Below, one piece after another: positions 5,312 to 63,768 of a stretch of 64,000 bases of DNA. The notes beneath the pieces were generated by a model. It did no database searches. It was not told where the DNA came from and was given only the letters and a program-made list of their open reading frames with translations. This stretch comes from an uncultured Clostridia bacterium (GTDB lineage: Bacteria; Bacillota; Clostridia; TANB77; CAG-508). Location: the NCBI GenBank assembly GCA_934183325.1, contig CAKPSH010000007.1, positions 1,029 to 65,028 of the forward strand, given 5' to 3'. The translations under genes and the position numbers were made by a program. Position 1 is the stretch's first letter, and each line of letters opens with the position of its first letter.

Positions 5312-5504
5312 TTTTATAACTGATATCTATTACTTAAACATTTAAATCCTCTTAAAATTCTTATTTAATAAATACTTAATTTAAATAGTTATTATCTTAC
5401 ATCTTCTATTATCATTAATTTATTAAAATAAGATGAACTATTGCATACATTTTATAACAGTAAAGTCCTATACGCATTGATATTGCATATAGGACTTTTT
5501 ATTC

Positions 5505-7572: not shown

Positions 7573-7698
7573 ATACTAATTCACCCTTTCTCTTATGATT
7601 TTCTATTTTATAATAACATTTTCATTAATGCAAGTTATTATTATAAAATATCAAGAATCTATATTAGAATAACAAAGTAGATAACTTTCCTAGAAAGA

Positions 7699-7728
7699 TA
7701 AAAAAAATACAGATATCAATATCTGTAT
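7699..7728 (-). terminator. intrinsic terminator of rpmE
   Basis: ATACAGATAT/ATATCTGTAT hairpin (7707-7728) followed on the minus strand by a U-tract (A-run 7700-7706). Confidence 0.7.
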
Positions 7729-10951: not shown

Positions 10952-11130
10952 TTTTGCACCTCCTAAATTTTACATTCGCCTAATTCGTAGAAAAAGTGGT
11001 GTTATAACCTTTTTCCAAGAAATAGGTAATAATACTTTTCTAGTATACTATAAAAATTCTAAAAAATCAATACTTTTATAGAAATAAAATCTATTATCAT
11101 TTCTCACAATTTCAGTATTATATATTTATA

Positions 11131-12494: not shown

Positions 12495-12970
12495 TAGTTT
12501 TTTTAATTTTTTTTATTTTTTTTATTTTATTTTTTTAAAATTGGCTTTTTCCAATAGTTTGACAGTCTAATTTTTTAAAATCAAATAATGTTTATCTAAA
12601 CTTTTTCTTAATTCCTATCTTTATTATTATCTTATTCATGTCACATGATATTAATAATTTTTTCTTCGACATACTTAGCTTTTATTTTTCATTAATGTGT
12701 ATAAATATTTGCACTTATTCAGCATATTCTCGTATATTTTCAATAACAATGTATTTACTAATTAAAATATTTAAATTCTACTTTTCTTTTTATTTCAAAG
12801 TATTTCATAATTGTTTTATATTTACTGTTTTTATACACTAAAAAGTTCATAAAACTTTTACAATATACAAGAAAATATTTTATTGATATTTTTTTTCTTT
12901 TGTGTTATCCTAATACAGAAATAATAAATATATATTAAGTATATTTTTACTTAAGAAAGGATGAAAAATT

Positions 12971-15208
12971 ATGAGATTTACTGAATGGAATGGTTTCAAT
13001 GGCGGAGACTGGGAAAACGAAATTGATGTTAGAGAATTTATTCAAAAGAACTATACGCCATATTGTGGTGATGCTAGCTTTTTAGCAGGTGCTACACCAA
13101 AAACTCAAGAATTATGGAATAAAGTTCTTGAATTATATAAAAAAGAAAAAGATTCACAAGGTGGAGTTTTAGATATTGATACAAAAACACCTTCTGGAGT
13201 TGATGCATATCAACCAGGATATATTGATAAAGATTTAGAAGATATTGTTGGTCTTCAAACTGATGCCCCTTTAAAAAGAGCTATTATGCCTAATGGTGGT
13301 ATAAGAATTGTAGAAAAATCTTGTGAAGCATGTGGAAAAGAAGTTGATCCTGAATTAGATAAAATTTATCATACTATAAGAAAAACACACAATGATGGTG
13401 TATTTAGTGTATATACTCCTGATATTAGAGCTGCAAGAAGTTCTCATCTACTTACAGGTCTTCCTGATGGATATGGTCGTGGTAGAATAATTGGTGATTA
13501 TAGACGTGTTGCTCTATATGGTGTAGATATATTAATAGAAGAAAAGAAACATGAATTAGAATTAGTTGATCTTGATAACCTTACAGAAGAGATTATTCGT
13601 GAACGCGAAGAGATTAGTGACCAAATTCTTGCATTAAAAGCATTAAAAAGTATGGCTTCAAAATATGGTTTTGATATTTCTAAACCTGCTTGTAATTCAA
13701 GAGAAGCTGTTCAATGGTTATATTTTGGATATTTAGGTGCAATAAAAGATCAAAATGGTGCTGCAATGAGCCTAGGTAGAACTTCTACTTTCTTAGATAT
13801 CTATTTTGAAAGAGATTTAAAAGCAGGATACATTACAGAAGAAGAAGCACAGGAAATAATGGACCATTTTGTTATGAAATTAAGATTAGTTAGATTTTTA
13901 AGAACTCCTGAATACAATGAATTGTTCTCTGGAGATCCAGTATGGGTTACAGAATCAATTGGTGGTATGGGAATTGATGGTAGAACATTAGTTACTAAAA
14001 ATTCTTTTAGAATTTTAAATACTTTAAATACTTTAGGATCTGCTCCAGAGCCAAATTTAACAGTTTTATGGTCTACTAGACTTCCAGAAGGATTTAAGAA
14101 ATTTGCAACAGGTCTTTCAATAAAGACATCTTCTATTCAATATGAAAATGATGATTTAATGAGAGTTACTTTAGGTGATGATTATGGTATAGCTTGTTGT
14201 GTTTCTGCTATGAAAATAGGTAAACAAATGCAATTCTTTGGTGCAAGAGCAAACTTAGCAAAAGCTTTATTATATGCAATAAATGGTGGTAGAGATGAAT
14301 TAACTGGAAAACAAGTCACTCCTGAATTTGCTCCTATTACATCTGAATATTTAAATTATGATGAAGTAATAGCTAAATATAATGTTATGATGGATTATGT
14401 TGCTAAAATCTATTTAAAAGCTTTAAATTGCATACATTACATGCATGATAAATATTCTTATGAAGCATTAGAAATGGCTTTACATGATAAAGATATTTTA
14501 AGAACTATGGCTTGTGGAATTTCAGGTTTCTCTGTTGTAGTTGATTCACTTTCAGCAATTAAATATGCTAAAGTAAAAGTTATAAGAGATGAAACAGGAT
14601 TAGCTGTTGATTATGAGATTGAAGGAGACTTTCCTAAATTCGGCAATGATGATAATAGAGTTGATGAAATTGCAGTTGAATTAGTAAAAGTATTTTTAGG
14701 CAAATTAAAAAGATATAACACATATAAACATTCAAAAACTACAATGTCTATCCTTACAATTACTTCAAATGTTGTTTATGGAAAACACACTGGTAATACT
14801 CCTGATGGTAGACGTTATGGAGCTCCATTTGGACCTGGTGCAAATCCTCTTCATGGAAGAGATGTTAATGGTGCTCTTGCGGTTATGAATAGTATTGCAA
14901 AATTACCTTATGATTACTCAGAAGATGGAATTTCTTATACATTTTCTATTACACCTGGAACATTAGGAAATGATTCTGAAACTCAAGTAAATAATCTAGT
15001 ATCAATGTTAGATGGTTTCTTTGCTAGAAAAGGTCATCATATTAATGTTAATGTTTTTGATAGAGCTCTTCTTGTTGACGCAATGGAACATCCAGAAAAA
15101 TACCCACAATTAACCATAAGAGTATCTGGATATGCTGTTAAATTTATTAATTTAACTCGTGAACAACAATTAGACGTAATTAATAGAACAATTCATGAAA
15201 AAATTTAA
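12971..15208 (+). CDS. pflB: pyruvate formate-lyase (formate C-acetyltransferase)
   Basis: 745 aa with active-site CCVSAM and glycyl-radical motif RVSGYAV near the C-terminus. Confidence 0.97.
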
Positions 15209-18088: not shown

Positions 18089-18121
18089 TAAAAGTGGTAT
18101 CAAATAATTGATACCACTTTT
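18089..18121 (-). terminator. terminator after RNase P RNA
   Basis: AAAAGTGGTATCAA/TTGATACCACTTTT hairpin immediately 3' of rnpB. Confidence 0.7.
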
Positions 18122-18122
18122 G

Positions 18123-18473
18123 TAAGTGAACCTATAAGCCGGGTTCTGTCTAGAATAGTCATTTATCTACTATTTATATTACTATAAATCTCAAGCGACC
18201 AAATTAAGAAGATGAAAAGAGCAATCTTATTCTTCTTGTCTCGGTCTTGCCTCAGGTGGGGTTTACATGGACCAACTGTGTCACCACAGTCGCGGTAAGC
18301 TCTTACCTCACCTTTTCACCCTTACCACTACTATAAGTGGCGGTAATTTTCTGTTGCACTTTCCTTAAGGTTTCCCTCACTGGACGTTATCCAGCACCCT
18401 GCTCTTTAGAGGCCCGGACTTTCCTCGTACGCTATCTTTCGATCTTGCTATACGCGACTATTCAATTCACTCA
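18123..18473 (-). ncRNA. rnpB: RNase P RNA (bacterial, type B-like)
   Basis: Minus strand carries the universal P4 motifs GAGGAAAGTCCGGGC (18426-18412) and ACAGAACCCGGCTTA (18149-18135). P1 pairs AGTGAA/TTCACT at the two ends. The block is GC-rich with no credible ORF. Ends are approximate. Confidence 0.85.
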
Positions 18474-18561: not shown

Positions 18562-18590
18562 TTGACATTTACATAAAATAATAGTATAAT
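18562..18590 (+). promoter_or_regulatory. consensus sigma-A promoter of an orphan transcription unit
   Basis: TTGACA (18562-18567), 17-nt spacer, TATAAT (18585-18590). Confidence 0.6.
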
Positions 18591-18596
18591 AATAGT

Positions 18597-18806
18597 TGTA
18601 GATGGCTAAATGCCATTTGCAGGAATGTACATTGAGTGAGTGTAAAAAAAAGCGTCCTGTCAGGTTTTTTCTTGATTACGAGGTGTAAATCCCCGTCGAA
18701 TGTTAGGTCTCCTCACCGAGCATTCTTTAGGAAGGACGTTCTTTGGTTCCGTGCTGGTTCCAAAGTACTAACCCCGCTGATTCAGAATCAGCGGGGTTTC
18801 TTTTTA
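18597..18806 (+). ncRNA. candidate structured ncRNA (~210 nt), family unassigned
   Basis: Lies between the consensus promoter and a 14-bp palindromic terminator AACCCCGCTGATTC/GAATCAGCGGGGTT (18770-18798) plus T-run. GC-enriched, with internal pairings (ATGGC/GCCAT 18602-18616; CGTCCT 18652-18657 with AGGACG 18732-18737). Only SD-less ORFs up to 28 codons. Confidence 0.5.
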
Positions 18807-18919
18807 TATTCTTAGGAAAGTCATCTATGAAATAGTGAGTTTCCTTAGAAGATAATTATGGAAGAATTAAATTTCCTTATGTGCCTTGGGCACTTAGAAA
18901 ATATTATTCTTGTTTTTTA
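18801..18919 (-). repeat. ~118-bp terminator-associated dispersed repeat, copy 1 (inverted relative to copies 2-6)
   Basis: Reverse complement matches copies 2-4 with about 3 substitutions; one lies in the loop of the GTGCC...GGCAC hairpin. Starts in the T-run of the preceding terminator and ends on the htpG stop codon. Confidence 0.85.
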
Positions 18920-20794
18920 TTTCGAAATTATTTCACAAATATAATTACTTATCTCTGTTGGATTTTCTATTGGTAAGCCTTCAATTAATCTGGCCTGTGA
19001 ATATAATACCTTTGTATATTTTTTTAATTCTTCTTTATTATTTTCAAATAAATCTTTTAGTTTTTTTGCAATTTCATGATTTTCATTTATCTCTAGAACA
19101 GTTTGTGCCTTAACCCCTTGACTGTTTGGCATAGCACTTAATGTCTTTGCCATTTCAATTGATACTGCTCCCTCACTGCTTAAGCATACTGGATGATTCT
19201 TTAATCTGTGAGTAAATCTTATTTCTTTTACTTCACCACTTATTGCTTCTAACATTGTATCAAACATTTCTTTGCTTTCTTCATTTTTCTTTTCAAGTTC
19301 TTCTTTCTCTTCTGCTGTATCTAAATCTATACTTTCAGAACTTACATTCTTAAATGTCTTTTCTTCATAATTCATTATAACTTGTAGAACAAATTCATCT
19401 ACATTATCTGTTAAATATAATACTTCAAAGCCTTTATCTTTAAATGCTTCTACTTGTGGTAATAAATCTATTTTATCTATTGTTTCACCTGCTGCATAAT
19501 AAATTTCTTTTTGTCCTTCCTTCATTCTTTGAACATATTCTTTTAATGTAACTAATTTCTTTTCTGTTGATGAATAGAACATTAATAAATCTTTTAATTT
19601 ATCCTTGTCCATTCCATAATTTCCATAAGTTCCATATTTTAATTGTAAACCAAATGTATTAAAGAATTTTTCATATTTAGTCCTATCTGTTTTTAACATA
19701 TTCTCTAATTCAGCTCTTATTTTATTTTCGATATTTTTAGCTATAATTTTTAATTGTCTATCATGTTGTAGCATTTCTCTTGAAATGTTTAAAGACAAAT
19801 CCTGACTATCTACCAATCCTGTTACAAATCCAAAATAATCTGGTAGCAAATCTTTGCATTTATCCATTATCAATACACCATTTGCATATAATTGTAGTCC
19901 TCTTTCATATTCTTGAGAATAGTAATCATAAGGCAAATGTTCTGGTATAAATAGTAAAGCATCATAAGTAAATTGACCTTCAACTGATGTATGAATTACT
20001 TTCATAGGATTTTCAAAATCACGTATTTTTTCTTTATAAAATTCATTATATTCTTCATCTTTTATAGTCTTTTTATCTCTTTTCCATATAGGAATCATAG
20101 AATTTATTGTTTCTATTTTCTTTACTTTTTCATTTTCTTTTCCTTCTTTTTGAACTTGTTCCTCTAATTCCATTTGAATTGGATAACGAATATAATCAGA
20201 ATATCTCTTAATTAATCCTTCAATTGTAAAATCTTCTAAATATTGACTATATTTTTCTTCATCAGTATCTTCTTTTATATGAAGTGTTATCTTTGTTCCT
20301 ATATCACTTTTTTCACATTCTTCTATTGAGTACCCCTCTACTCCTTTTGATATCCATTTATAAGCTTTTTCTGAATCCATTGATTTTGTTTCAACAGTTA
20401 CTTCATCACTTACCATAAATGACGAATAAAATCCCACACCAAATTGTCCTATAATATCTATATCTTTTCCTTTTTCTATTTCTTCTTTAAAGCTTAACGA
20501 ACCACTTTTAGCAATAGTTCCAAGATTATTATCTAATTCTTCTTCTGTCATTCCACAACCATTATCTGTTATTGTTATTGTTCTTTTTTCTTTATCCAAG
20601 TCAACTTTTATTTTCAAATCTTCTTTTTTTAATGTAGTATTTTTATCTGTTAATGAACGATAATAACGTTTATCAATTGCATCACTCGCATTTGAAATAA
20701 GTTCTCTTAAAAATATCTCTTTATTTGTATAAATTGAATTAATCATTAAATCTAATACTCTTTTAGATTCTGCTTTAAATTCTTTATTCTCCAT
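18917..20794 (-). CDS. htpG: molecular chaperone HtpG (Hsp90)
   Basis: ORF 18917-20872, start moved to MENKEFKAE (ATG 20794) after AAGGAAGGA. Motifs ELISNASDA and GQFGVGFYS. Confidence 0.95.
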
Positions 20795-25292: not shown

Positions 25293-25410
25293 AGTATTCT
25301 CTCCTTTCTTTTTGTGTGCATTTTATTATAAGATATTTTTTCTTTTATTGTCAATAGCCTTACAATTTTTTCACAAAACTTTCACATTTCCATTGAATAC
25401 CTCAAACAAA

Positions 25411-25531
25411 TAAAAAACAAGAATAACATTTTCTAAGTGCCAAAGGCACATAAGAAAATTTAATTCTTCCATAATTATCTTCTAAGGAAACTCACTATTT
25501 CATAGATGACTTTCCTAAGAATATAAAAAAA
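25411..25531 (+). repeat. ~118-bp terminator-associated dispersed repeat, copy 2 (full length)
   Basis: ATAAAAAACAAGAATAACATTTTCTAAGTGCCAAAGGCACATAAGAAAATTTAATTCTTCCATAATTATCTTCTAAGGAAACTCACTATTTCATAGATGACTTTCCTAAGAATATAAAAAAA. Core is identical to copy 4. Confidence 0.9.
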
Positions 25532-25567
25532 GAATTTAAAATTAACTTTAAATTCCTTTTTTATTAT

Positions 25568-25999
25568 TTATCTTTTCTTAAATAATGATTTTATTTTATT
25601 TAAAATTTTTGTAAATACTGTTTCTTTTTTCTTTATTGTTACCATAGTATTAATTTTTTGTGTATTTTCTTCTTTATTTCTATTTTTAAACATATTTTCT
25701 GTGCTATACTTTTCACTTAACTGTTTTTCATTTTCTTTTAGTACATCTTCAACCTCTTTTTTTTCTTCTTCATTTGCTATATAGTCTAAATATAATGATG
25801 TTAATAATATCGCTGTTTTTTCTTCTATATTATTTTCATTAATATCATCTAATGTATTATATTGATTAATATATTCTTTTGATTTTTGACTTTTTATATT
25901 TTCATATATTTTTGTTGGTATCTTGTTTTTTTCACTTTCATCAAGTAAATTTATAATTTCAAATAATTCTGAATATGCTTTTGCATCAATATTGCTCAT
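25568..25999 (-). CDS. hypothetical acidic/lysine-rich protein
   Basis: 143-aa ORF, overlaps the upstream gene by 14 nt. N-terminal AYSELFEIINLLDESEKNKIPTKIYENI pattern resembles an uncharacterised domain often fused to XRE regulators (recollection only). Confidence 0.55.
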   Translation of the reverse strand: MSNIDAKAYSELFEIINLLDESEKNKIPTKIYENIKSQKSKEYINQYNTLDDINENNIEEKTAILLTSLYLDYIANEEEKKEVEDVLKENEKQLSEKYSTENMFKNRNKEENTQKINTMVTIKKKETVFTKILNKIKSLFKKR

Positions 26000-32113: not shown

Positions 32114-32190
32114 TCGTGCCAAAATTACTATGTAATTTTGTGTACAATGTATTTTATATACTAAAAAGTTCAGAGAACTTTCTTAGTATA

Positions 32191-32311
32191 TAAAAAACAA
32201 GAATAACATTTTCTAAGTGCCAAAGGCACATAAGAAAATTTAATTCTTCCATAATTATCTTCTAAGGAAACTCTCTATTTCATAGATGACTTTCCTAAGA
32301 ATATAAAAAAA
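32191..32311 (+). repeat. ~118-bp terminator-associated dispersed repeat, copy 3 (full length)
   Basis: One substitution relative to copies 2 and 4 (CTCTCTATTT vs CTCACTATTT). Preceded by a 17-bp hairpin at 32155-32192. Confidence 0.9.
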
Positions 32312-32345
32312 GACAACAGCAGTGGCTAAACAATCCACTGCTGTT
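32304..32345 (-). terminator. terminator of the 223-aa membrane-protein gene
   Basis: AACAGCAGTGG (32315-32325) pairs with CCACTGCTGTT (32335-32345). Its U-tract is the A-run that ends repeat copy 3. Confidence 0.75.
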
Positions 32346-32352
32346 ATCTTTT

Positions 32353-33024
32353 TTAATGTTTCTTTATTACTGTCTCGTATCCTAAATCATAAAGTTTATT
32401 AAATCTCTCCCACAAAATCGCTGACGCAAAATACGAAATGATCAAAATACAATTTAATGTTACCTCTCCCTGTTTTAGTACAGTTGTTAGCACAATTGGG
32501 ATATACCACAAAATGTTAATCACTCCTGAGGTTACAAATGTTGTAAGCATAACATCAGTTCTTATTTCGTAAGAAGGCTCAGCAACCGTACACACCCATG
32601 TAGCTTTTCTTTCTTTACTTATGATGCTTGATAGCGCAATCGCTACACCAATCATAACCGTTTTGTTATATTTAGTTATATTTTCACTGATACTTCTCAT
32701 TATTAAACTAAATACTACAGACCCCATCATAACACATTGAAAATACTGTATTTTCTTACCTAACAATTCGTCTACCTTTATTCCAAAGCTAAAAGTTAAA
32801 ATAGAAATAAGATAAATTGCATAAAACAAGCAAAAATTATTTCTATCCCCAACATACATTCTCAGATACTGTGCTCCTACAATTGTGTATTCAGATTTGC
32901 TTTTTTCCATTGCAAAACATATAACTTGAATTAAATCAGAAAAAAGTATGTGCATTAGTTTTGCAAAGAAATAAGTGTAAATCACCCGCTGAAGATTGCT
33001 AAAGAACCATTTTTGTTTCTGCAT
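32353..33024 (-). CDS. polytopic membrane protein, unknown function
   Basis: ORF 32353-33039, start moved to MQKQKWFF (ATG 33024), 8 nt after GGAGG. About 6 hydrophobic segments. Confidence 0.6.
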   Translation of the reverse strand: MQKQKWFFSNLQRVIYTYFFAKLMHILFSDLIQVICFAMEKSKSEYTIVGAQYLRMYVGDRNNFCLFYAIYLISILTFSFGIKVDELLGKKIQYFQCVMMGSVVFSLIMRSISENITKYNKTVMIGVAIALSSIISKERKATWVCTVAEPSYEIRTDVMLTTFVTSGVINILWYIPIVLTTVLKQGEVTLNCILIISYFASAILWERFNKLYDLGYETVIKKH

Positions 33025-33175
33025 TAGGAAGTCCTCCATTTCTTTTAGTTCTTATATTATATACTTTTTAATTAATTATGTCAATTAGCAGAATATTATT
33101 ATTATATTTTGTAACAATTTTGTCTTAACACTTGTTTTTTTCTATAATTTATGGGATAATATATGAAGTAAAATT

Positions 33176-35476
33176 TTGTTGAAAGTGGTGGGAATTTTGA
33201 AATATATAGACAAATTTCTAAAAATATTAAAAACAGATAGAAATACTTTTTTTACATATGTACTAACATTAATATCAATATATATAGCAATTGATAGAGT
33301 AGTTGAGTTACTATTCCTATGTTTAACAGGTATTTCTGTATCATATTGGGGACCGATAGCATATACAATTGCATTTGCCTGTCCTGTATTTGCATTTTTG
33401 TTTTCATTTTCATCTAAGTTTGTTAAGGATACAACTCAAAAATTTGCATTTACAATTTTGTATATTATTATGTTATATATAATGGCTATTTCAATGTTTG
33501 TTCAATGGTTTAACCAGGCTGGTTGGTTGCTTTTACTTTCTGTACCAAATTATGCAGAAATTGTTACAAATTTTTATCCTGAAGTAAAAAGAGCTTTTTG
33601 TGCAATAGCAATATATCTACCAGTAACTACATTTTTCTCATTATTCTGGTTTATATATACAGAGTTAAATGATACTCCTTTAGAGTATCAATCTATAATG
33701 GACTATACTGGACTTGATATTTCTAAGAAGCCTGAAAAACTTGGACCTTATGCATATGAAATTGCTTTTGGAACTGACTATGAAACAGGAGCTCCTGCAA
33801 AAATAGTTGATGTAAGAAGATATGAGCCTACATTTATATGTGGAACATCAGGAACAGGAAAAACTTCCCTTGTTTTTGAACCCATGATTGCTCATGATAT
33901 AAAACAAAAAAGTTTCTTTAAAGAATCTTCTAAAGCTTTAGGTTATGTTGCTTTAAAAACAGGTCTTGCATCACTAAGCTGTCCTTATGATAATGAATAT
34001 TTAAATAAAAATTTCAATCTTAATATGTTAACAATAAATGATGGAAAAGAAAAATTATATAAAGCATATATGCATAAAATGCTTTTAAATGAAAATTCAT
34101 TAGTTTATAGAGATTTAGGAATAACCTTTCTTTCTCCAGACTATGAAGCAACCTCTCACATGATGGATGTTGCAGATAATTTTAATATTCCTTATACATT
34201 AGTTGATCCATCAAATTCAAAATCAGCTGGTATAAATCCATTTGCTTATGGTTCTCCTGAAGAAGTTGCTGTAGTAATCTCTACAATATTATCTAATACA
34301 TACTTTTCATTACATCCAACACCAGAAGAAGCTTATGCACAAAATCTTTCTTCTCAAGCTGTTGAAAATTTATCTATTTTATTAAGCGAAATGTATCCAA
34401 GATTACATGATGGTGCACTGGCAAATATTGAAGATATTCTAGATATGCTTAATAATTTTGATTTAATATTAGATTTATGTAAAAAGGTAGAAGAAATACC
34501 TGAGTTAGCCGTAAAATATAAATTACAATTAAACTATTTTAGAAAATATTTTGCTCCAGGTGATTTTATTCAACAAACAGAATCATCAATATATTCTGCA
34601 ATAAATCAATTAGATAGTATTTTAAGAATGAGTGGTTTGAGAAATATTTTATGTAATAGAACTAATAATATAAATTTTGAGGATGCTTTAAAAAATGGTG
34701 AACTTATATTTGTATGTACAAGACGTGGAGATTTAGGCCCTATGCTTCATAAAGCTTTTGGATTATTCTTTATATTATCAATGCAATATGCTGTATTAAA
34801 AAGACCTGGAAATGAAAATACTCGTATTCCAAACTTTTTATACATTGATGAATTTTCAGACTTTATATGTAAAAATACTTTACCTCTATTTACAATGTAT
34901 AGAAAATATAGAGTTGGAACCATTATATCTACTCAAAATATAGATCAATTAGATGCATTTGAAGGCTCTAAACAAACAATTCTTGCTAATTGTACAACTA
35001 AAATGGTATTTGGAAATAATAGTCCTAAAGATAATGAATTCTGGTCTAAAGAACTTGGATATAAGAAGAAATGGTTAATGAGTGTTGACTATCATCTTGA
35101 GCCTGGAAATAATCATTCTAGTGACCTAAAAGGTGCTAAATGGGATTGGACACCTTACTTTAAACCTGAAGCAATTCAAAACTTTAAGTTTAAAATTGCT
35201 GGATTTAAGTCTAAAGATGAAAAAGGAAAAACCTATGCAGCTAAGGTTACATTAAATTTCTTGGACTCTGAATATAAGGAACCTCATTCTTCAAAGACAT
35301 ATGATTTCAGTAAATATAATTCATCAACTGTTGCTGATCAAAATACTCATTCCAAAAATGATTATGGGCTTTCATATGATAACGGCTCAGATCCAATTCA
35401 AGCAGATCCAAATTTATTATTTCACAACGATGATGCAATAATATTCGATATAAATAAGCATAATAATAATAATTAA
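33176..35476 (+). CDS. type IV coupling protein-like (TraD/TraG/VirD4-type) membrane ATPase
   Basis: About 5 N-terminal TM helices, Walker A GTSGTGKTS, Walker B FLYIDEFSDF, N-rich tail. No ATG near the 5' end, so a TTG/GTG start somewhere in 33176-33200 is uncertain. Confidence 0.75.
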   Translation: MLKVVGILKYIDKFLKILKTDRNTFFTYVLTLISIYIAIDRVVELLFLCLTGISVSYWGPIAYTIAFACPVFAFLFSFSSKFVKDTTQKFAFTILYIIMLYIMAISMFVQWFNQAGWLLLLSVPNYAEIVTNFYPEVKRAFCAIAIYLPVTTFFSLFWFIYTELNDTPLEYQSIMDYTGLDISKKPEKLGPYAYEIAFGTDYETGAPAKIVDVRRYEPTFICGTSGTGKTSLVFEPMIAHDIKQKSFFKESSKALGYVALKTGLASLSCPYDNEYLNKNFNLNMLTINDGKEKLYKAYMHKMLLNENSLVYRDLGITFLSPDYEATSHMMDVADNFNIPYTLVDPSNSKSAGINPFAYGSPEEVAVVISTILSNTYFSLHPTPEEAYAQNLSSQAVENLSILLSEMYPRLHDGALANIEDILDMLNNFDLILDLCKKVEEIPELAVKYKLQLNYFRKYFAPGDFIQQTESSIYSAINQLDSILRMSGLRNILCNRTNNINFEDALKNGELIFVCTRRGDLGPMLHKAFGLFFILSMQYAVLKRPGNENTRIPNFLYIDEFSDFICKNTLPLFTMYRKYRVGTIISTQNIDQLDAFEGSKQTILANCTTKMVFGNNSPKDNEFWSKELGYKKKWLMSVDYHLEPGNNHSSDLKGAKWDWTPYFKPEAIQNFKFKIAGFKSKDEKGKTYAAKVTLNFLDSEYKEPHSSKTYDFSKYNSSTVADQNTHSKNDYGLSYDNGSDPIQADPNLLFHNDDAIIFDINKHNNNN

Positions 35477-35564
35477 CTAAAATAAGAACTATAATCCTTA
35501 AAGGATTATAGTTCTTTTAAAAATGTAAAAAGCCTTCATTAAAATTGAAGGCTCTTATATTATT

Positions 35565-36512
35565 CTATTTATTATCTAATAATTTTAATTCTACATTTTC
35601 CATTTTGTACTTATTCGTTTCTTCATCTAGTTTAAATTCAATAAGGGAATTTGATAAGCTTTCCTGATTTTGCCTTAAATCTGTTGTAAAGTATAATTTT
35701 ATCTTTGGAATCTCTAATCCCTTTAAAACTATATTTTTGTATGTTTCAACTATATGTTTTTCATCCTCACAATCAATTATTAATTGTGGAAGTGATTCAT
35801 ATCCAGAATCTCCTGGTGTATAATTTGTATAAAAATCTGAATAAAATTTCATTTTATCTTCTAGCTTTTTCTCCCAGTCATCTTCTCTTCTAATTACTTC
35901 AAATAAAAATGAAATTGACTTACCATTTTTAGCTAATTTTACATTTCCACCAGTAGCTCTAAATGTTTTTCCTAATGATTTAGCTGTTAATTGTGGTTTT
36001 ACAATATATGAATCAAATGCAGGAACTTTTCTTAAATAAGCAAGTAATATTTGATTTCCTGCTAATCTCTTTTTTATCATTCCTACTGGTTTTGTGTTAT
36101 CACTAGGTTGCCATTTACATTCTATTCCTCTTGATTCTATTAAATATTTTCCCATTTTTTCAAGTGAATATACTCTATATGTTCCTTTTCCCTCTTCAAT
36201 AGATGAAAAGTAATATCTAGTAAGCATTTTTGATTTTATCATTTGCTCTAATTTATTATTTAATTTATCTTGATTTCCATATTCTACACCTTTGCTATCA
36301 AGTACTTGGCATAATTGTCTTGATGTTATAAATTCAAATTCATTTAAAATTTCTAATATTTTAAAATGTAATTCATTTATATGTCCTAAGTTTATCTTGT
36401 TAACAATTTGTTGCATTGACACATATCCATCTTTTCCATCAAATACTTTTATTTCACCTTTTTTTACAGCAAATGGTGATACTTTTGCTTCAATTTGATT
36501 ATCTTCAATCAT
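35565..36512 (-). CDS. replication-relaxation family-like protein (putative wHTH DNA-processing protein)
   Basis: 315 aa. N-terminal winged-helix-like segment (LHFKILEILNEFEFITSRQLCQVL) and overall layout resemble PF13814-type proteins that accompany coupling ATPases in Firmicutes elements. GGAGGA SD 8 nt from the ATG. Confidence 0.55.
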   Translation of the reverse strand: MIEDNQIEAKVSPFAVKKGEIKVFDGKDGYVSMQQIVNKINLGHINELHFKILEILNEFEFITSRQLCQVLDSKGVEYGNQDKLNNKLEQMIKSKMLTRYYFSSIEEGKGTYRVYSLEKMGKYLIESRGIECKWQPSDNTKPVGMIKKRLAGNQILLAYLRKVPAFDSYIVKPQLTAKSLGKTFRATGGNVKLAKNGKSISFLFEVIRREDDWEKKLEDKMKFYSDFYTNYTPGDSGYESLPQLIIDCEDEKHIVETYKNIVLKGLEIPKIKLYFTTDLRQNQESLSNSLIEFKLDEETNKYKMENVELKLLDNK

Positions 36513-36688
36513 TGATTATTTCCTCCTTATAATGAATATAATTGATATTCACTTTGCATGTACATTTTCATTATAAGCCATTTACCAATATTTTGCAAGT
36601 TTTTTTATTTATTTTTTCTTATTTATTGCATTATGTCAATATATGTTGTATAATGTATAAAATTGTAATATATAAGGTAGGTATTATA

Positions 36689-37306
36689 ATGAAAACAATA
36701 ATTATAGGAGTTGCCGGTGGTAGTGGATCTGGTAAAACTACATTGGCACAAAATTTACAAAAAGAATTTCAAGATGATATTCTTTTATTATCTCACGATT
36801 TTTACTATAAACGTCATGATGAATTATCTTTTGATGAAAGAAAGAAATTAAATTATGATCATCCTGATGCCTTTGATACTTCGCTTTTAATAGAACATTT
36901 AAAAGAATTAAAAAAAGGCCATTCTATTGAACATCCAGTTTATTCTTTTATAAATCATAATCGAGAAGATTTTACTGTTAAAGTTGAACCTAAAAAGATT
37001 ATAATTGTTGAAGGTATTCTTATCTTTGAAAACAAAGAATTATGCAATATGATGGATATAAAAATATTTGTTGATACTGACGCAGATATACGTTTCATTA
37101 GAAGACTTGTTAGAGATGTTAATGAAAGAGGAAGAAGTATTGATTCAGTAATTACTCAATACTGTGATACAGTTAAACCTATGCATGAGCAATTTGTTGA
37201 ATATAGTAAAAAGAATGCTAACATAATTGTTCCAGAAGGCGGAGATAATGTTATAGCATTAGATATGATAACACAACATATAAAAAATATGTTACCTAAT
37301 TTATAA
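36689..37306 (+). CDS. udk: uridine kinase
   Basis: ORF 36542-37306, start moved to MKTIIIGVAGGSGSGKTT (ATG 36689). P-loop and the uridine kinase core. Confidence 0.95.
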   Translation: MKTIIIGVAGGSGSGKTTLAQNLQKEFQDDILLLSHDFYYKRHDELSFDERKKLNYDHPDAFDTSLLIEHLKELKKGHSIEHPVYSFINHNREDFTVKVEPKKIIIVEGILIFENKELCNMMDIKIFVDTDADIRFIRRLVRDVNERGRSIDSVITQYCDTVKPMHEQFVEYSKKNANIIVPEGGDNVIALDMITQHIKNMLPNL

Positions 37307-37348
37307 AAGATATACTATTTTTGTAGATAATTTTCATAAAATATAACC

Positions 37349-37390
37349 AAAACACCGCCCTGGCATTTAATGTCAGGGCGGTGTTTTTTG
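37349..37390 (+). terminator. intrinsic terminator of udk
   Basis: AACACCGCCCTG (37351-37362) pairs with CAGGGCGGTGTT (37374-37385), followed by TTTTT. Confidence 0.85.
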
Positions 37391-37411
37391 TTCCACGTAT
37401 TTTATTTATAT

Positions 37412-37532
37412 TAAAAAAACAAGAATAACATTTTCTAAGTGCCAAAGGCACATAAGAAAATTTAATTCTTCCATAATTATCTTCTAAGGAAACTCACTAT
37501 TTCATAGATGACTTTCCTAAGAATATAAAAAA
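37412..37532 (+). repeat. ~118-bp terminator-associated dispersed repeat, copy 4 (full length)
   Basis: Core identical to copy 2. Confidence 0.9.
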
Positions 37533-37540
37533 TCATAAAT

Positions 37541-37571
37541 TTAAGGAGTACTACTATGTAATACTCCTTAA
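37541..37571 (-). terminator. stem-loop after the SSB-like gene
   Basis: TTAAGGAGTA/TACTCCTTAA hairpin followed on the minus strand by AUUUAUGAUUUUUU, which runs into repeat copy 4. Confidence 0.6.
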
Positions 37572-37600
37572 TATATGTGATTTATATGGTGTAGGCTTTT

Positions 37601-38314
37601 TTATACAGCTTCTTGATTTTCTGTATTTTCTACAGTATTCTCTGTTGATGTTTCTCCATCTTCTTTTATAACTTCTAAGCTTGATATTGAAACTTCATAA
37701 GCTGTTCTATCTTCAACTGTTCCATCTTCGTGTTTCTTTTGATACACTCTTGATTGAACTCTTCCTATTGCTTTTACTTGTGTTCCTGTTTCTAATGTAT
37801 CGCAAAATCTAGCTGTTCTTCCCCAAGCAATAGCAGGAATGTAATCTGATTTACTATAAGCTCTATTTACTGCTAATAATGCATCTGCAATTTCACGTCC
37901 AAAAGGAGTTTTTCTATAAATAGGCTTTTTGCAAATATGACCAATTAATGTAACTTCATTTGATACATTTAAATCAATGTCACCATCTGTCTCTGCTCTA
38001 CTTTCAATTTCTTCTTCTGGAATTATGTCTTTTGCAAATACAGTTAGTACTAATCTACTTTTTTCATTTTCATAACTATTATATGATCTAAATTGTCCTT
38101 TTACAATTACTTTTTTTCCAATTTCTAATTCTCCATCTTTAATTAGTCTTTCTGAAATTGTTATTGGTATTAAATCGTAAGTTTCACTTAAACGAGGTAT
38201 TTCCATATCAAATATGTAAAAACTTTCTCCATAAATTTCATGACTAAATCTCTTTTCACTTGCTACTTTTCCAACCAATACTAAATGGTTATTTTCTGAA
38301 TAATTTGTATTCAA
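37601..38314 (-). CDS. single-stranded DNA-binding (SSB/OB-fold) family protein with two OB-like halves
   Basis: ORF 37601-38395. ATG 38395 has no SD, whereas GGGAGG lies 8 nt before TTG 38314 (NTNYSENNHLVLVGKV...). Two repeats of the VxLxGxV...G...V.V.G.....Y pattern and an acidic tail. Confidence 0.6.
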   Translation of the reverse strand: MNTNYSENNHLVLVGKVASEKRFSHEIYGESFYIFDMEIPRLSETYDLIPITISERLIKDGELEIGKKVIVKGQFRSYNSYENEKSRLVLTVFAKDIIPEEEIESRAETDGDIDLNVSNEVTLIGHICKKPIYRKTPFGREIADALLAVNRAYSKSDYIPAIAWGRTARFCDTLETGTQVKAIGRVQSRVYQKKHEDGTVEDRTAYEVSISSLEVIKEDGETSTENTVENTENQEAV

Positions 38315-38431
38315 TTTCTTTTCCTCCCTATTTTTCTTTAATTTTTCTATTGTTTTTTTAACTAATTTCGTCGTACAATACCTATTATACAACATTTTTT
38401 TGTCTTTGTCTACATAATTTGTTAAATATTT

Positions 38432-38941
38432 TCAGTTTTTTTGACTAATTTTTCCATATAATAGCATAATTGATGATATTCCTATAAGATTATTTGTATT
38501 TATGCCTATATTTTCTTGAAAAGAAGTTATCTTTATTTCTTGTTGTTCTATAACCTTATCTTCTATATCCTTTATTTTCCTCTGAATACACAATAAAATA
38601 TCTTCTTCTACGCTTGAAGCTGTAATCGTTGACTTTGGGTTAAATCCAAAAGTTATAACATTTAAAGTTTTTTCTGGAATAATTTCCAAATTAATTTCCT
38701 CATCTGCATTTATAATTAAGTATTTTGCATTTTCTATTATTTTTTTTATTGCTTCCGTATTGCTCTTTAAAATCGCACTATTTTCTGCTATTAAGATAGT
38801 TTCAAATTTTATATTTTTTAAATTTTCAACACTATTTGAATTTATAATAAAAATATTTGTTTCCTTCTCGAAGCAATTTTCCAGTATTTTTTTTATTATT
38901 TTTTCACTTTTAGAATCCGAAATAATCCCTATAAATGGCAT
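38432..38941 (-). CDS. hypothetical protein (169 aa)
   Basis: AAGGAG SD. No motif recognised. Confidence 0.55.
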   Translation of the reverse strand: MPFIGIISDSKSEKIIKKILENCFEKETNIFIINSNSVENLKNIKFETILIAENSAILKSNTEAIKKIIENAKYLIINADEEINLEIIPEKTLNVITFGFNPKSTITASSVEEDILLCIQRKIKDIEDKVIEQQEIKITSFQENIGINTNNLIGISSIMLLYGKISQKN

Positions 38942-51589: not shown

Positions 51590-51681
51590 TTTTATTTCCT
51601 CCCTTTTTATTTTACCATATAGTTTAATTTTTTTGCAATATTTAAAATATTTTTTATACTAATCAAACACGTTTGCAATTT

Positions 51682-51733
51682 TTCTAAGGAAACTCACTAT
51701 TTCATAGATGACTTTCCTAAGAATATAAAAAAA
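51682..51733 (+). repeat. terminator-associated repeat, copy 5 (terminator-proximal 52 bp only)
   Basis: TTCTAAGGAAACTCACTATTTCATAGATGACTTTCCTAAGAATATAAAAAAA. Begins exactly at the second internal TTCTAAG of the full unit. Confidence 0.85.
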
Positions 51734-51774
51734 GTATATATTAGTTATTATCAACTTAATATATACTTTTTCAT

Positions 51775-55326: not shown

Positions 55327-55429
55327 ATTTTATTCCCTTCTTCTTTATAAATTGTTTTTATATTTTATAATATACATTTAAAAAAATCAATACAAAATAT
55401 AGCTAACTTTCCTAAAACAAAAACAGATA

Positions 55430-55500
55430 TAAAAAACAAGAATAACATTTTCTAAGGAAACTCACTATTTCATAGATGACTTTTCTAAGAATATAAAAAA
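55430..55500 (+). repeat. terminator-associated repeat, copy 6 (internal 50-bp deletion)
   Basis: Both ends of the unit are present, but the segment between the two TTCTAAG direct repeats is missing. Confidence 0.85.
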
Positions 55501-55536
55501 ACCGATGGTGGTGATCTTTCGACCACCACCATCGGT
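55495..55536 (-). terminator. GC-rich terminator of island cassette A
   Basis: 13-bp stem, ACCGATGGTGGTG (55501-55513) with CACCACCATCGGT (55524-55536). Its U-tract is the A-run that ends repeat copy 6. Confidence 0.85.
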
Positions 55537-55543
55537 TTAGGTA

Positions 55544-55927
55544 TTACTTATCGCAATATGCAATTGCGATAATATTAACACCTTCAGTGTTTGTGTATGC
55601 ACACAAGCGCATCCACGAACCTTCCTTATACTGGAAGTCCTTAGAATACTTCCAGTGCTTGGTGCCAATCATTGCCTCTGCCGGGCAATCATACTTGCGT
55701 ACTCTCACCACACAGCTGAGACCACTGAGATAGTTAAGGAAGTTAAAGACTTCCGCCTTCAGTTCCTTATTTTTCAGAATCCCAATTACTTGGGACCCCT
55801 TGCTATTGTTGGGACATTGCCACGTCAGGTCATGTCCACCATCAGCTCTAAACTGGCTATTAGCCAGTTCAGCTTCACCATCGGTTTTCCACTCGACAGC
55901 GCCAAACTCAAGCTCCTCGTAGGGCAT
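55544..55927 (-). CDS. island cassette A: small cytoplasmic protein (127 aa), unknown family
   Basis: ORF 55544-55954, start moved to MPYEELEF (ATG 55927) after AAGGAGGG. GC-rich coding DNA (29/60 at 55801-55860). Shares a C-terminal core with cassettes B-D. Confidence 0.7.
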   Translation of the reverse strand: MPYEELEFGAVEWKTDGEAELANSQFRADGGHDLTWQCPNNSKGSQVIGILKNKELKAEVFNFLNYLSGLSCVVRVRKYDCPAEAMIGTKHWKYSKDFQYKEGSWMRLCAYTNTEGVNIIAIAYCDK

Positions 55928-55980
55928 AAAGCCCTCCTTTCTTTCTCTGCTCACGGAACTTTTCCGTTCTTGCTTTTTAT

Positions 55981-56009
55981 ATTATACAATTTTATGTAAA
56001 TTTTGTCAA
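55981..56009 (-). promoter_or_regulatory. promoter of cassette A
   Basis: Minus strand reads TTGACA (56009-56004), 17 nt, TATAAT (55986-55981). Full sequence TTGACAAAATTTACATAAAATTGTATAAT. Confidence 0.6.
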
Positions 56010-56116
56010 ATTCTAAATATAAACTAAATATTAATAGCATTTACATTAGCAAAAATCTTTTACTTTTCATCCTTATTTTATAAGTCATCTTTCTTATACA
56101 ATATTTATATAACACA

Positions 56117-56140
56117 ATGAGGTGGCCTAAGCCACCTCAT
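56117..56140 (-). terminator. terminator hairpin of cassette B
   Basis: ATGAGGTGGC-CTAA-GCCACCTCAT. Same sequence as the cassette C hairpin. The U-tract is weak. Confidence 0.6.
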
Positions 56141-56158
56141 CGTGTTTGATGGGATATT

Positions 56159-56557
56159 TTAACGATTGCGCTGAGAGAATGCAATGTTCAGCGCCTTTCT
56201 GCCATCATCCATGGTATAGCCACAGATTTCAGCAAAATACCGAACACTAGAAATCTCAATCCCCCTGTTCCAGTTTTTTACACCCTCGACTGTGTCGAGG
56301 ATGCAATCATAGAAGCGAACATTGACGACCTCGTATTCAACAAAGTCAACAAAGTTCATCAAGCGGAATAATTCCCGTCTCAGTGCGTCGTCAGACATGA
56401 GTATTTTGGTAGGGGACATCACTGCATTTTCAGGCTTCCTCCATACCTTCTCACTCTTTCCTTCTGACCCTTTGTAGAGGTAATTAGCCTCTTCACTATA
56501 AGGATCTTTTTCCCATCGGGTCTTCTCGAATCGAAGACCATCAGAGTAAACAGACAT
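56159..56557 (-). CDS. island cassette B: small cytoplasmic protein (132 aa), paralog of C
   Basis: GAGGAG SD (56569-56564) and ATG 56557. MSVYSDGLRFEKTRWEKDPY... GC-rich coding DNA. Confidence 0.7.
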   Translation of the reverse strand: MSVYSDGLRFEKTRWEKDPYSEEANYLYKGSEGKSEKVWRKPENAVMSPTKILMSDDALRRELFRLMNFVDFVEYEVVNVRFYDCILDTVEGVKNWNRGIEISSVRYFAEICGYTMDDGRKALNIAFSQRNR

Positions 56558-56610
56558 ATATGTCTCCTCTCTTTAATGACTCACAGAACCACTCTGGTCT
56601 TGTCTTTTTT

Positions 56611-56639
56611 ATTATACAATTTTATGTTAATTTTGTCAA
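56611..56639 (-). promoter_or_regulatory. promoter of cassette B
   Basis: TTGACA (56639-56634), 17 nt, TATAAT (56616-56611). Full sequence TTGACAAAATTAACATAAAATTGTATAAT. Confidence 0.6.
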
Positions 56640-56665
56640 ATCTAAAATGCCTACATATATCAATA

Positions 56666-56689
56666 ATGAGGTGGCCTAAGCCACCTCAT
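56666..56689 (-). terminator. terminator hairpin of cassette C
   Basis: ATGAGGTGGC-CTAA-GCCACCTCAT, identical to the hairpin at 56117-56140. Confidence 0.6.
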
Positions 56690-56713
56690 CGTGTTTGATG
56701 GGATATTCAGCTA

Positions 56714-57151
56714 TTAACGCTTAACAAATGCAATATTCAGGGCCTTTCTGCCATCCTCCATGGTACAACCACAGATTTCGGTAAAATACCAAAGACTAGG
56801 AATCTTGATTCCTCCCTTCCATTCTTTTACACCTTCAACCTTATCGAGGATACAATCATAGCAGCGAACATTGACGACCTCATATTCAACAAATTCAATA
56901 AAGTTCATGAGATGGAACAATTCATCTCTCAGACCCACATCAGATAAAAGTTTCTTGGTTGGCGACATTACCTCTCCTTCAGGCTTACGCCAAACCTTAT
57001 CCTTCTTTCCATTTGCCTCTCCTTTAGGCCCACGCCAAACAATCTCATTCTTTCCTCTTGCCTCTTTATAGAGGTAATTAGCCTCCTCGCAATATGGGTC
57101 TCTCTCCCATCTCGTCTTCTCGAATCGAAGACCATCAGAGTAAACAGACAT
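56714..57151 (-). CDS. island cassette C: small cytoplasmic protein (145 aa), paralog of B with a 13-aa internal repeat
   Basis: MSVYSDGLRFEKTRWERDPY... Differs from B at 2 of the first 29 residues. Contains GKNEIVWRGPKGEAN followed by GKKDKVWRKPEGEV. Confidence 0.7.
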   Translation of the reverse strand: MSVYSDGLRFEKTRWERDPYCEEANYLYKEARGKNEIVWRGPKGEANGKKDKVWRKPEGEVMSPTKKLLSDVGLRDELFHLMNFIEFVEYEVVNVRCYDCILDKVEGVKEWKGGIKIPSLWYFTEICGCTMEDGRKALNIAFVKR

Positions 57152-57204
57152 ATATGTCTCCTCTCTTTAAAGACTCACAGAACCACTCTGGTCTTGTCTT
57201 TTTT

Positions 57205-57233
57205 ATTATACAATTTTATGTAACTTTTGTCAA
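57205..57233 (-). promoter_or_regulatory. promoter of cassette C
   Basis: TTGACA (57233-57228), 17 nt, TATAAT (57210-57205). Leader is nearly identical to that of B. Confidence 0.6.
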
Positions 57234-57280
57234 TTTTTTAAATTTTTTCCGTTGACTTTTTTATTTTTATTACTGTATAA

Positions 57281-57321
57281 CAAAAACTCAAAGGTCTATG
57301 GCGTAGCCATAGACCTTTGAG
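57281..57321 (-). terminator. terminator of cassette D
   Basis: 16-bp stem, CTCAAAGGTCTATGGC (57287-57302) with GCCATAGACCTTTGAG (57306-57321). U-tract on the minus strand (A-run 57282-57286). Confidence 0.85.
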
Positions 57322-57322
57322 T

Positions 57323-57628
57323 TTAGAGTTTCACAACTGCAACCTTTGCCTGTTTATCGAAATGGCAAATTTTTGCAATAAAACGCTTGCCAGAAACTAC
57401 AACTGGACCTTTCCAGCCTTCCGTTTCTTTAGCTAAAACCTCCTTGTCGCGGTACAGTCTCATGAAGACTACATCTCCCTCATTCAAGAACCCCCTCATT
57501 CTCCACAGCAGCTCCGTATCTTTGAATATGTCGCATGCTTTGAACTCGCTGACATACCATCTCATAGGCATATCAAATTCTTTAATCCGTTCGATGTTCT
57601 TAGGATTTGTAATACGGCTCCAGCCCAT
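57323..57628 (-). CDS. island cassette D: small cytoplasmic protein (101 aa), distant paralog of A-C
   Basis: GAGGAG SD 8 nt from ATG 57628. MGWSRITNPKNIERIKEF... GC-rich coding DNA. Confidence 0.65.
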   Translation of the reverse strand: MGWSRITNPKNIERIKEFDMPMRWYVSEFKACDIFKDTELLWRMRGFLNEGDVVFMRLYRDKEVLAKETEGWKGPVVVSGKRFIAKICHFDKQAKVAVVKL

Positions 57629-63525: not shown

Positions 63526-63535
63526 AATATCCCCA

Positions 63536-63768
63536 ACATATATTAATTTTAGAGTCAATAGCCTCATCAAGCCTGCTGCTCACGGATTACTCCAGCGACC
63601 TGACGAGATTGACAATAAAATCAATCTCATTTGAATTATTCTATAACTTATTTAAAGACCTACATATATTAATTTTAGAATCAATAACCTCGTTAAGCCT
63701 GCTGCTTACGGATTACTCCAGCGACCTGACGAGATTGATGATAAAATTAATTATATGTAGGTCTTAAT
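63536..63768. repeat. tandem direct repeat (2 units, 126-bp period), each with a GC-rich ~60-nt hairpin core
   Basis: Units start at 63536 and 63662 (ACATATATTAATTTTAGA...). Hairpin cores lie at 63554-63613 and 63680-63739. The second unit is enclosed by a further 20-bp inverted repeat (63655-63674 with 63745-63765). Confidence 0.75.

Follow-up and report, generated by a model that had tools for sequence, protein, structure and literature searches.

A short non-autonomous mobile repeat behind transcription terminators in an uncultured gut Clostridia bacterium

The DNA analysed here (the window) is a stretch of 64,000 nucleotides from contig CAKPSH010000007.1 of an uncultured Clostridia bacterium. 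It has a G+C content of 28%, the GC skew of its + strand is negative throughout, and 39 of its 51 genes lie on the - strand. The genes are mostly housekeeping genes, together with a TraG/relaxase/SSB remnant. The window carries six copies of a short repeat, which is the subject of this study: four are full, one is a half unit and one has an internal deletion (Table 1). All six places announced in the original prediction were recovered by repeat finding, six-way alignment and pattern search. A 25-nt core pattern gave six matches in the window with up to three mismatches allowed, with 0 expected by chance, and an nhmmer scan of the window yielded no additional substantial copy.

The core of the repeat is 105 nt long and spans ATTCTTAGG to TTATTCTTG. 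In the direction of the upstream gene, the parts of a full copy are, in order, T5-7AT, ATTCTTAGGAAAGTCATCTATGAAATAGTGAGTTTCCTTAGAAGAT (hairpin 1), AATTATGG (linker), AAGAATTAAATTTTCTTATGTGCCTTTGGCACTTAGAAAATGTTATTCTTG (hairpin 2) and T6AT; both flanks of the core are T5-7AT, the motif recorded earlier as ATAAAAAA. The full copies of the window are mutually 95-98% alike, and copies overall are 95-100% alike. The two hairpins are long and interrupted, they are paralogous and lie in direct orientation, and their arms are related (CTTAGAAGATAATTAT versus CTTAGAAAATGTTATT). The small GTGCC-AAA-GGCAC hairpin noticed at first is real, with the copy-1 substitution in its loop. The CTAAG/CTTAG motifs described with it are also present, but they are arranged as CTTAGRAA, three times in direct orientation, and two paralogous long hairpins rather than a single small one make up the unit.

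Inspection of the copy ends agreed with the claim that terminal inverted repeats are absent: the left end, ATTCTTAGGAAAG, gives no inverted match with the reverse complement of the right end, CAAGAATAACATT, and the inverted repeats detected in self-matches are the internal hairpin arms. A terminal direct repeat of 6 bp, (A/C)TTCTT, is present. The deletion in copy 6 falls exactly between two CTTAGAA direct repeats, and its short form is shared with two further loci, in L083 and L086 (L-numbers denote metagenome or strain contigs). The only open reading frame (ORF) of the unit extends beyond it into flanking sequence (28 aa for copy 1; ~33 aa for copy 2, by reading), and its end differs between copies. 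A small protein gene was considered and discarded, since this ORF (MEELNFLMCLW...) reaches its stop only in the flank, which is variable, and since the short copies lack it. Elsewhere in the window, weak palindromic units at 11009-11054 and 12829-12874 (TATAYACTAARAAGTTC...GAACTTT.TTAGTATA) resemble hairpin 1, and may belong to an older or ancestral hairpin family.

The repeat is a recently active, non-autonomous element, and comparison between strains shows that it is mobile. Copy 2 is cleanly missing in L115 (…AAATTC-T9-ATTTG…) and present in ~10 other strain contigs. Copy 3 is missing in L113 and L115 (…GTC-T7-AT-ATAC…) and also in L114/L117, which retain only an older relic, and copy 4 is missing in L114 and L115 (…CTTA-TTTTTAT-AATAT…). 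The flanks are 97-99.7% identical at the empty alleles of these three copies. In addition, L088 and L129 have a full copy ~130 nt 3' of tRNA-Leu, at a site (window 5368-5374) where the window and five strains (L106-L109, L128) have no insertion. Copies 1, 5 and 6 were found in every strain examined. Empty sites in related strains had been suggested at the outset as a means of fixing the limits of the unit, and it is because these presence/absence polymorphisms are clean that the ends of the element are defined.

The decayed forms of the repeat fit into the same comparison. A relic lies downstream of copy 3 in all strains, and its version in L114/L117 is less decayed, with 89% identity to hairpin 1; given that this older relic adjoins copy 3, the terminator in front of that copy has been used twice. 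The site downstream of rpmE, a copy added from strain contigs, exists in three states: a full copy in L124-L126, a decayed short copy in the window, and a mere remnant in L129. The latter, T8AT-CTTCTTG-T6AT, corresponds to a deletion between the 6-bp terminal direct repeats. Deletions between short direct repeats, either CTTAGAA or the terminal (A/C)TTCTT, yield the half, short and 7-nt remnant forms.

Two of these sites show further variation. The gene order downstream of rpmE differs by strain, with PGI or a CTP-transferase/CoaE block (L124-L126 13247-13366; L129 ~13215-13260), and the synteny breakpoint falls at the right end of the element copy. Copy 1 and its orthologues in L124-L131 differ at 3-9 of ~105 positions, with flanks that differ by 0.1-0.5% on one side and by 2-5% on the other. 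These orthologues mix the subfamily markers CTTCTAAGG and AATAACATTTT, and turnover or gene conversion at a single site may account for the variation.

The six window copies all come after a hairpin (dG -8.8 to -31.8 kcal/mol) and a T-run. It had been proposed that the copies begin at the U-tract of a terminator, and this is the case except for copy 4, which stands at a second T-run, ~10 nt past its hairpin and not in the immediate tail. The proposed common orientation relative to the upstream gene was upheld, with a co-oriented gene upstream of five of the six copies and an unannotated small RNA (sRNA)-like gene on the + strand upstream of copy 1. The arrangement is reproduced elsewhere in the sample available: of 14 further loci with enough upstream sequence to be judged, 12 have a hairpin with dG <= -9.7 directly before the T-run, and the nearest upstream ORF is co-oriented at ~10 of 12. 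In L092 the upstream hairpin is the tail of another copy, i.e. one copy is inserted behind another. The loci in L088 and L093 (2 of the 14) have no hairpin upstream.

Among the T[TA]TTTAT sites that lie unoccupied between genes of the window, only 12 of 76 are preceded by a hairpin with dG <= -8.8, and the placement of six out of six copies behind terminators has a chance probability of ~1e-4, which is similar for TTTTTAT or TTTTTTAT alone. The motif by itself does not account for the terminator bias. A terminator hairpin is nevertheless not required, since the L088/L129 site has none and copy 4 lies ~10 nt away from its own. As the element has a fixed orientation relative to an asymmetric motif, it is co-oriented with the terminated gene, whichever strand that gene is on. 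The excess at terminators over other intergenic T-runs would reflect either a preference for DNA beside a hairpin or selection. A role of the unit as promoter or 5' leader of the downstream gene was examined and rejected, given that copies 1 and 4 face convergent genes and that strong downstream-gene promoters lie outside the unit.

The sRNA-like gene upstream of copy 1 (~205 nt, 18596-18800, +) possesses a perfect TTGACA-17-TATAAT promoter at 18562-18590 and a strong terminator at 18770-18798. Its fold is highly stable (z = -6.1), it matches no Rfam family, and it adjoins the RNase P RNA gene (18119-18473, -).

The invariant feature of the insertions is a ...TTTAT directly 5' of the core, present at ~20 loci; undecayed full copies also have TTTAT directly after the core. 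The target motif is T(T/A)TTTAT, and there is a single insertion orientation relative to it. Empty sites have one motif and filled sites have two, one on each side. The ATAAAAAA ends, first interpreted either as a target duplication or as part of the unit, therefore represent either a duplicated target or a pair formed by a transposon-adjacent motif (TAM) and a transposon-encoded motif (TEM). Four of the five polymorphic sites are uninformative in this respect, because they are T-runs identical to the tail at the right end of the element. The site at 5368-5374 is an empty site of a fourth type, AAG-TATTTAT-TAAAT, and its filled allele in L088/L129 reads AAT-TATTTAT-[core ending ...CTTGT]-TATTTAT-TAAAT. 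Here TTATTTAT is found on both flanks as an 8-bp direct repeat, and GTATTTAT once in all five empty strains. With a 7-8-bp duplication, this allele needs a flank change only. Without it, a T-to-A change at exactly the matching right-end position and a separate flank change are needed, two independent coincident substitutions that are ~100 times less likely than one flanking single-nucleotide polymorphism (odds of ~100:1, a rough estimate for one event). The L088/L129 alleles thus suggest a real target-site duplication of 7-8 bp. A classical tyrosine-recombinase att site was discarded, as the sequences flanking the 7-bp core are direct and not inverted repeats.

We consider, with a confidence somewhat better than even, that the repeat is a small non-autonomous transposable element, bcr1-like in kind, which inserts in fixed orientation at T(T/A)TTTAT with a target duplication of 7-8 bp. 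Its movement would have to depend on an enzyme supplied in trans from another place in the genome. The element enters the asymmetric T(T/A)TTTAT in a single orientation, with the motif on both sides afterwards. In a genome of such low G+C content, the best versions of the motif (T5-7AT) are the T-tracts of intrinsic terminators. With the T-tract on the coding strand after the hairpin, the element is automatically co-oriented with the upstream gene. As for selection, the terminator-like hairpin and U6 at the end of the element would be harmless behind an existing terminator, and polar between a promoter and a gene.

Several points weigh against this explanation. The duplication is derived from one independent event, given that L088 and L129 share the same insertion, and it also requires one G/T difference beside the site; all the other targets cannot separate a duplication from an element-borne TTTAT. 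DDE transposases that make 7-8-bp duplications normally need terminal inverted repeats and insert either way round, and the element, without inverted ends and with a single orientation, is unlike DDE transposition on both counts. No transposase was found in ~40 kb of copy-carrying metagenome contigs. The terminator activity of hairpin 2 is a prediction by eye, and a simple terminator scan did not list this hairpin. Finally, the present data do not tell selection apart from a mechanism that targets terminators.

A serious though less likely alternative, and the main one as regards mechanism, is that the repeat belongs to the IS200/IS605 family as a palindrome-associated transposable element (PATE). 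A Y1 (HUH) TnpA encoded elsewhere would excise the element as single-stranded DNA and paste it 3' of TTTAT, the TAM; the TTTAT on the right would be the TEM, and no duplication would occur. PATEs of this family, like the repeat, lack inverted ends, carry end hairpins on one strand, insert 3' of a pentanucleotide and have a fixed orientation. In agreement with this, the repeat has no terminal inverted repeats, its related imperfect hairpins stand at both ends on the same strand, TTTAT is invariant 5' of the left end and undecayed full copies end in (T)TTTAT, orientation to the motif is strictly fixed, and empty alleles are scarless. The head-to-tail insertion in L092 is expected if TEM and TAM are the same. 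The IS200/IS605 family shows a lagging-strand-template bias, and five of the six window copies place this strand on the lagging-strand template, as presumed from the negative GC skew of the + strand. TTTAT is also the experimentally defined TAM of ISGst2 of Geobacillus stearothermophilus, an organism in which gene-less PATEs occur (bioRxiv 10.1101/2023.03.14.532601), and gene-less IS200/IS605 derivatives are moved in trans (bioRxiv 10.1101/2023.03.14.532601; PMC7290912).

The TEM of ISGst2 is TTCAC (bioRxiv 10.1101/2023.03.14.532601), whereas the repeat, as a PATE, would need a TAM identical to its TEM. If this explanation were true, the right-hand repeat would be fixed as GTTTTTTAT at every target. 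However, the right end in L088/L129, TTATTTAT, matches the left flank over 8 nt, and not the TTTTTTAT of the family; IS200/IS605 PATEs make no target duplication, and the one informative site looks duplicated over these 8 nt. Moreover, the left hairpin begins at base 1 of the element, with little room for an IS608-like guide 5' of the hairpin foot, the short form without hairpin 2 exists at three loci, and no Y1 transposase or full-length insertion sequence (IS) with these ends was found in the window or in the copy-bearing contigs. A related candidate, a TnpB guide-RNA scaffold, was rejected because the T-tract terminator occupies the exact position at which the guide would start.

In its placement the repeat resembles group IIC introns, which enter sites directly downstream of the hairpins of intrinsic terminators and take the orientation of the terminated transcript. 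These introns are 700-2000 bp in length, in contrast with the 105 bp of the element, which has flanking direct repeats and for which the hairpin is dispensable (L088). A group IIC intron or group II remnant was rejected on the grounds that the unit is 105 nt long, begins with AUUCUU and not GUGYG, and has no Rfam intron match at E<=1. The first option of the original prediction, a non-autonomous element aimed at terminator structures or T-tracts in the manner of IS200/IS605-type PATEs or group IIC introns, is thus retained in part: the polymorphisms, the TTTAT on the left flank and the 12 of 14 loci argue for a non-autonomous, T-tract-targeting element, but the hairpin is unnecessary and the group IIC intron is excluded.

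The two other options offered at first were a conserved 3' untranslated region (UTR) or sRNA module and a protein-binding insulator. In this case, selection would retain the unit behind terminators for a function of its own, as a stabiliser of the 3' UTR, a back-up terminator, an sRNA or an insulator. The fold is significantly stable on both strands (RNA z = -5.4 sense and -6.9 antisense; DNA z = -8.4 and -5.9, versus shuffles). In the predicted structure, hairpin 2 with its U6 resembles an intrinsic terminator when read in the sense direction, the three CTTAGRAA motifs could bind a protein, and copies 1, 5 and 6 are shared by every strain examined. Related repeats are transcribed or have been suggested to be terminators, as is the case for bcr (PMC3446304) and SPRITE (PMC3049150).

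Such a module is nevertheless quite improbable. Copies 2, 3 and 4 are dispensable among close strains, the genes flanking the copies are unrelated in function, and decayed, half and remnant copies are common. Among 19 distinct variants there are 34 distinct substitutions, of which 15 break predicted pairs, 4 are wobble-paired, 15 are unpaired and none is compensated. The family is absent from 80 related-species loci, plasmids and phages, and no Rfam family reached its gathering score (best ncr1175, 29.9 bits with a gathering score of 60; LhrC, 25 bits with a gathering score of 110). The arrival of identical copies at new sites would also be left unexplained. Because the substitutions are uncompensated, the copies dispensable and the neighbours unrelated, neither of these two options finds support. 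The repeat is not a new regulatory system, although individual copies may act as back-up terminators or may have been co-opted.

It could also be proposed that the repeat spreads as an RNA copy, similarly to a short interspersed nuclear element (SINE): its transcript would end at hairpin 2, and the U-tail, base-paired to the A-rich strand at a T-tract that has been nicked, would be reverse-transcribed there, with a T-rich duplication and a fixed orientation as the outcome. This would fit the apparent T-first duplication into which the T-tail of the element merges, the lack of inverted repeats and the strictly fixed orientation, and a copy-bearing contig, L084, encodes a partial reverse transcriptase (RVT_1) of group-II-intron-like appearance. 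The proposal is drawn by analogy and is hardly credible, given that target-primed reverse transcription is unlike a constant duplication of 7-8 nt, a conserved promoter is missing upstream of the 5' end of the element, and the L084 reverse transcriptase is otherwise unlinked to the element. We know of no bacterial precedent for SINE-like spread. The L084 gene itself lies at 1374-1964 (-; RVT_1, E = 4e-13), ~1.3 kb upstream of the element copy; the organism of this contig, which presumably belongs to the species of the window, thus has at least one reverse transcriptase gene.

To our knowledge, no characterised bacterial transposition chemistry fits a fixed 7-8-bp duplication of a T-tract with one orientation and without inverted ends: inverted ends are a requirement of DDE enzymes, and a duplication of this kind is not produced by Y1, serine or DEDD enzymes. 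An undescribed mobilisation route common to bcr1 repeats might be considered, although this is unlikely. The candidates for this route would be a transposase or recombinase that reads hairpin and T-tract DNA, or SINE-like reverse transcription in which a U-tailed transcript is primed at the T-tract.

Among described systems, the bcr1 repeats of the Bacillus cereus group are the best match in architecture and behaviour, as judged from descriptions and not from sequence. They are ~155 bp in length, with two independent stem-loops, TTTAT direct repeats and one TTTAT at empty sites, and are strain-variable (PMC3184786, PMC6199540, PMC6542083). Like bcr1, the element proposed here is small, gene-less, AT-rich and lineage-restricted, has two stem-loops and TTTAT on both sides, and its copy sets vary between strains; neither of the two has an assigned mobilising enzyme (PMC3184786, PMC6199540, PMC6542083). 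The element differs in being shorter, in a repeat that reaches 7-8 nt, T(T/A)TTTAT, and in its host, a gut Clostridia bacterium and not Bacillus. The literature consulted describes no systematic placement of bcr1 behind terminator hairpins.

The pneumococcal SPRITE is a positional analogue: it is another AT-rich Firmicute repeat of ~100 bp, has a U-rich tract behind a long stem and no matching IS, and is enriched near gene 3' ends and between convergent genes (PMC3049150). It forms one long duplex with AAAA/TTTT ends, in contrast with the two hairpins of the element, whose ends are set by four independent filled/empty sites; those of SPRITE are not defined by empty sites (PMC3049150). Classical MITEs (miniature transposable elements with inverted repeats), such as Correia/NEMIS, RUP and ERIC, are also small, non-coding, intergenic, structured and strain-variable, with a likely duplication (PMC3184786, PMC10969869). 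They have terminal inverted repeats that match a parent IS and usually a TA duplication, whereas the element has no inverted ends, but a terminal direct repeat and one orientation. A classical MITE was rejected, given the absence of terminal inverted repeats and of any related IS in the window, the loci, the plasmids and the phages.

A metagenome scan revealed 16 more contigs with the core, of which 15 represent loci absent from the window. Many metagenome contigs end inside the unit, as would be predicted for a dispersed repeat. Exact-protein look-ups indicate that the same species occurs in many human gut metagenomes (Hadza and others), with 97-100% nucleotide identity to the window. The exact core pattern has no match in species-representative genomes, a set that does not include the species of the window, and the closest relatives of the P-type ATPase of the window are from metagenome-assembled genomes of uncultured gut Clostridia, with <=78% identity. 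The repeat is absent from 80 loci of related species, the core pattern has no match in viral contigs, and blastn against phages and plasmids (a collection that includes Bacillus plasmids) gave nothing meaningful. The repeat family is, by these absences, lineage-specific.

In agreement with the original prediction, no transposase domain was found in the window, where 20 ORFs were searched against Pfam and most other genes were covered by the gene tables of the strain loci. Other mobile DNA was noticed in the surroundings. One strain has a DDE (rve) insertion sequence near rpsO (L108 116-1081), with ends unlike those of the repeat. An island of ~5 kb beside tRNA-Leu, which is absent from the window, encodes a large serine recombinase and a Mob_Pre relaxase (L106 10761-15059; L110-L112; window ~5500). 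The region 32353-38941 of the window contains a TraG-type coupling protein gene (33176-35476, +), a weak Replic_Relax match (35565-36512) and a gene for an N-terminally extended SSB-domain protein; it looks like the remnant of a mobilisable element, and is flanked by copies 3 and 4.

The repeat explains intergenic breaks in short-read assemblies of this common gut Clostridia lineage, and the presence or absence of its copies is a strain-typing marker. A T-tract-seeking element of fixed orientation can accumulate behind terminators, where an insertion adds a second terminator-like hairpin and ~120 nt (the 105-nt core and a second motif) to transcript ends. The repeat may also seed rearrangements. 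If the duplication is true, the family offers a second system, with many natural variants, for working out bcr1-type mobility. If it is not, the repeat would be a clean IS200/IS605 PATE whose TAM coincides with terminator tails, a case that bears on the choice of sites by TnpA/TnpB-type elements in AT-rich genomes.

Table 1. Copies of the repeat, their flanks and the associated terminators in the window (dG in kcal/mol).
Feature	Position	Strand	Remarks
Terminator hairpin of the sRNA-like gene (18596-18800), 5' of copy 1	18770-18798	+	dG -27.5 (56-nt window before T-run)
Copy 1, full core (hairpin 1, linker, hairpin 2)	18808-18912	+	only inverted copy; in all strains examined
Copy 1 flanks	18801-18807; 18913-18920		TTTTTAT; T+TTTTTAT
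Copy 2, full core	25418-25522	-	T-rich flanks 25523-25531 (upstream side), 25410-25417 (downstream side)
AT-rich terminator hairpin of 143-aa gene (25568-25999), before copy 2	25533-25558	-	dG -8.8
Copy 3, full core	32198-32302	-	flanks 32303-32311, 32190-32197
Terminator hairpin of 228-aa gene (32353-33039), before copy 3	32315-32345	-	dG -25.0
Decayed, older hairpin-1-like relic directly 3' of copy 3	32152-32189	-	repeat family D7
Copy 4, full core	37420-37524	-	between convergent SSB-domain gene and uridine kinase; flanks 37525-37532, 37411-37419
Terminator hairpin of SSB-domain gene, before copy 4	37541-37571	-	
Copy 5, hairpin 1 only	51680-51724	-	stops at first CTTAGAA; in all strains seen
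T-run, upstream side of copy 5	51725-51733	-	
Terminator hairpin, upstream side of copy 5	51734-51769	-	
Copy 6, short form (hairpin 1 and last 13 nt)	55437-55492	-	flanks 55493-55501, 55429-55436
Terminator hairpin before copy 6	55502-55540	-	
Decayed short copy after rpmE terminator	7650-7704	-	
Empty target TATTTAT, 3' of tRNA-Leu	5368-5374	-	full copy here in L088 and L129

Two other regions of the window are repetitive. Four small paralogous genes of 101-145 aa lie at 55544-57628 (-), with no Pfam match (one was scanned, the others being covered by precomputed tables); their upstream regions and a GC-rich hairpin are repeated (families D3-D5, D11). The region is strain-variable, and in L134-L136, L138 and L140 two of the genes are replaced by an opposite-strand gene of 291 aa. 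At 63533-63751, in the intergenic region after a pseudouridine synthase gene, there is a tandem repeat of 126 bp, with two copies that are 90% alike. The copy number of this tandem repeat probably varies, given that strains differ in the length of this intergenic region, with 272 nt as against 500 nt (L118/L137 versus L134).

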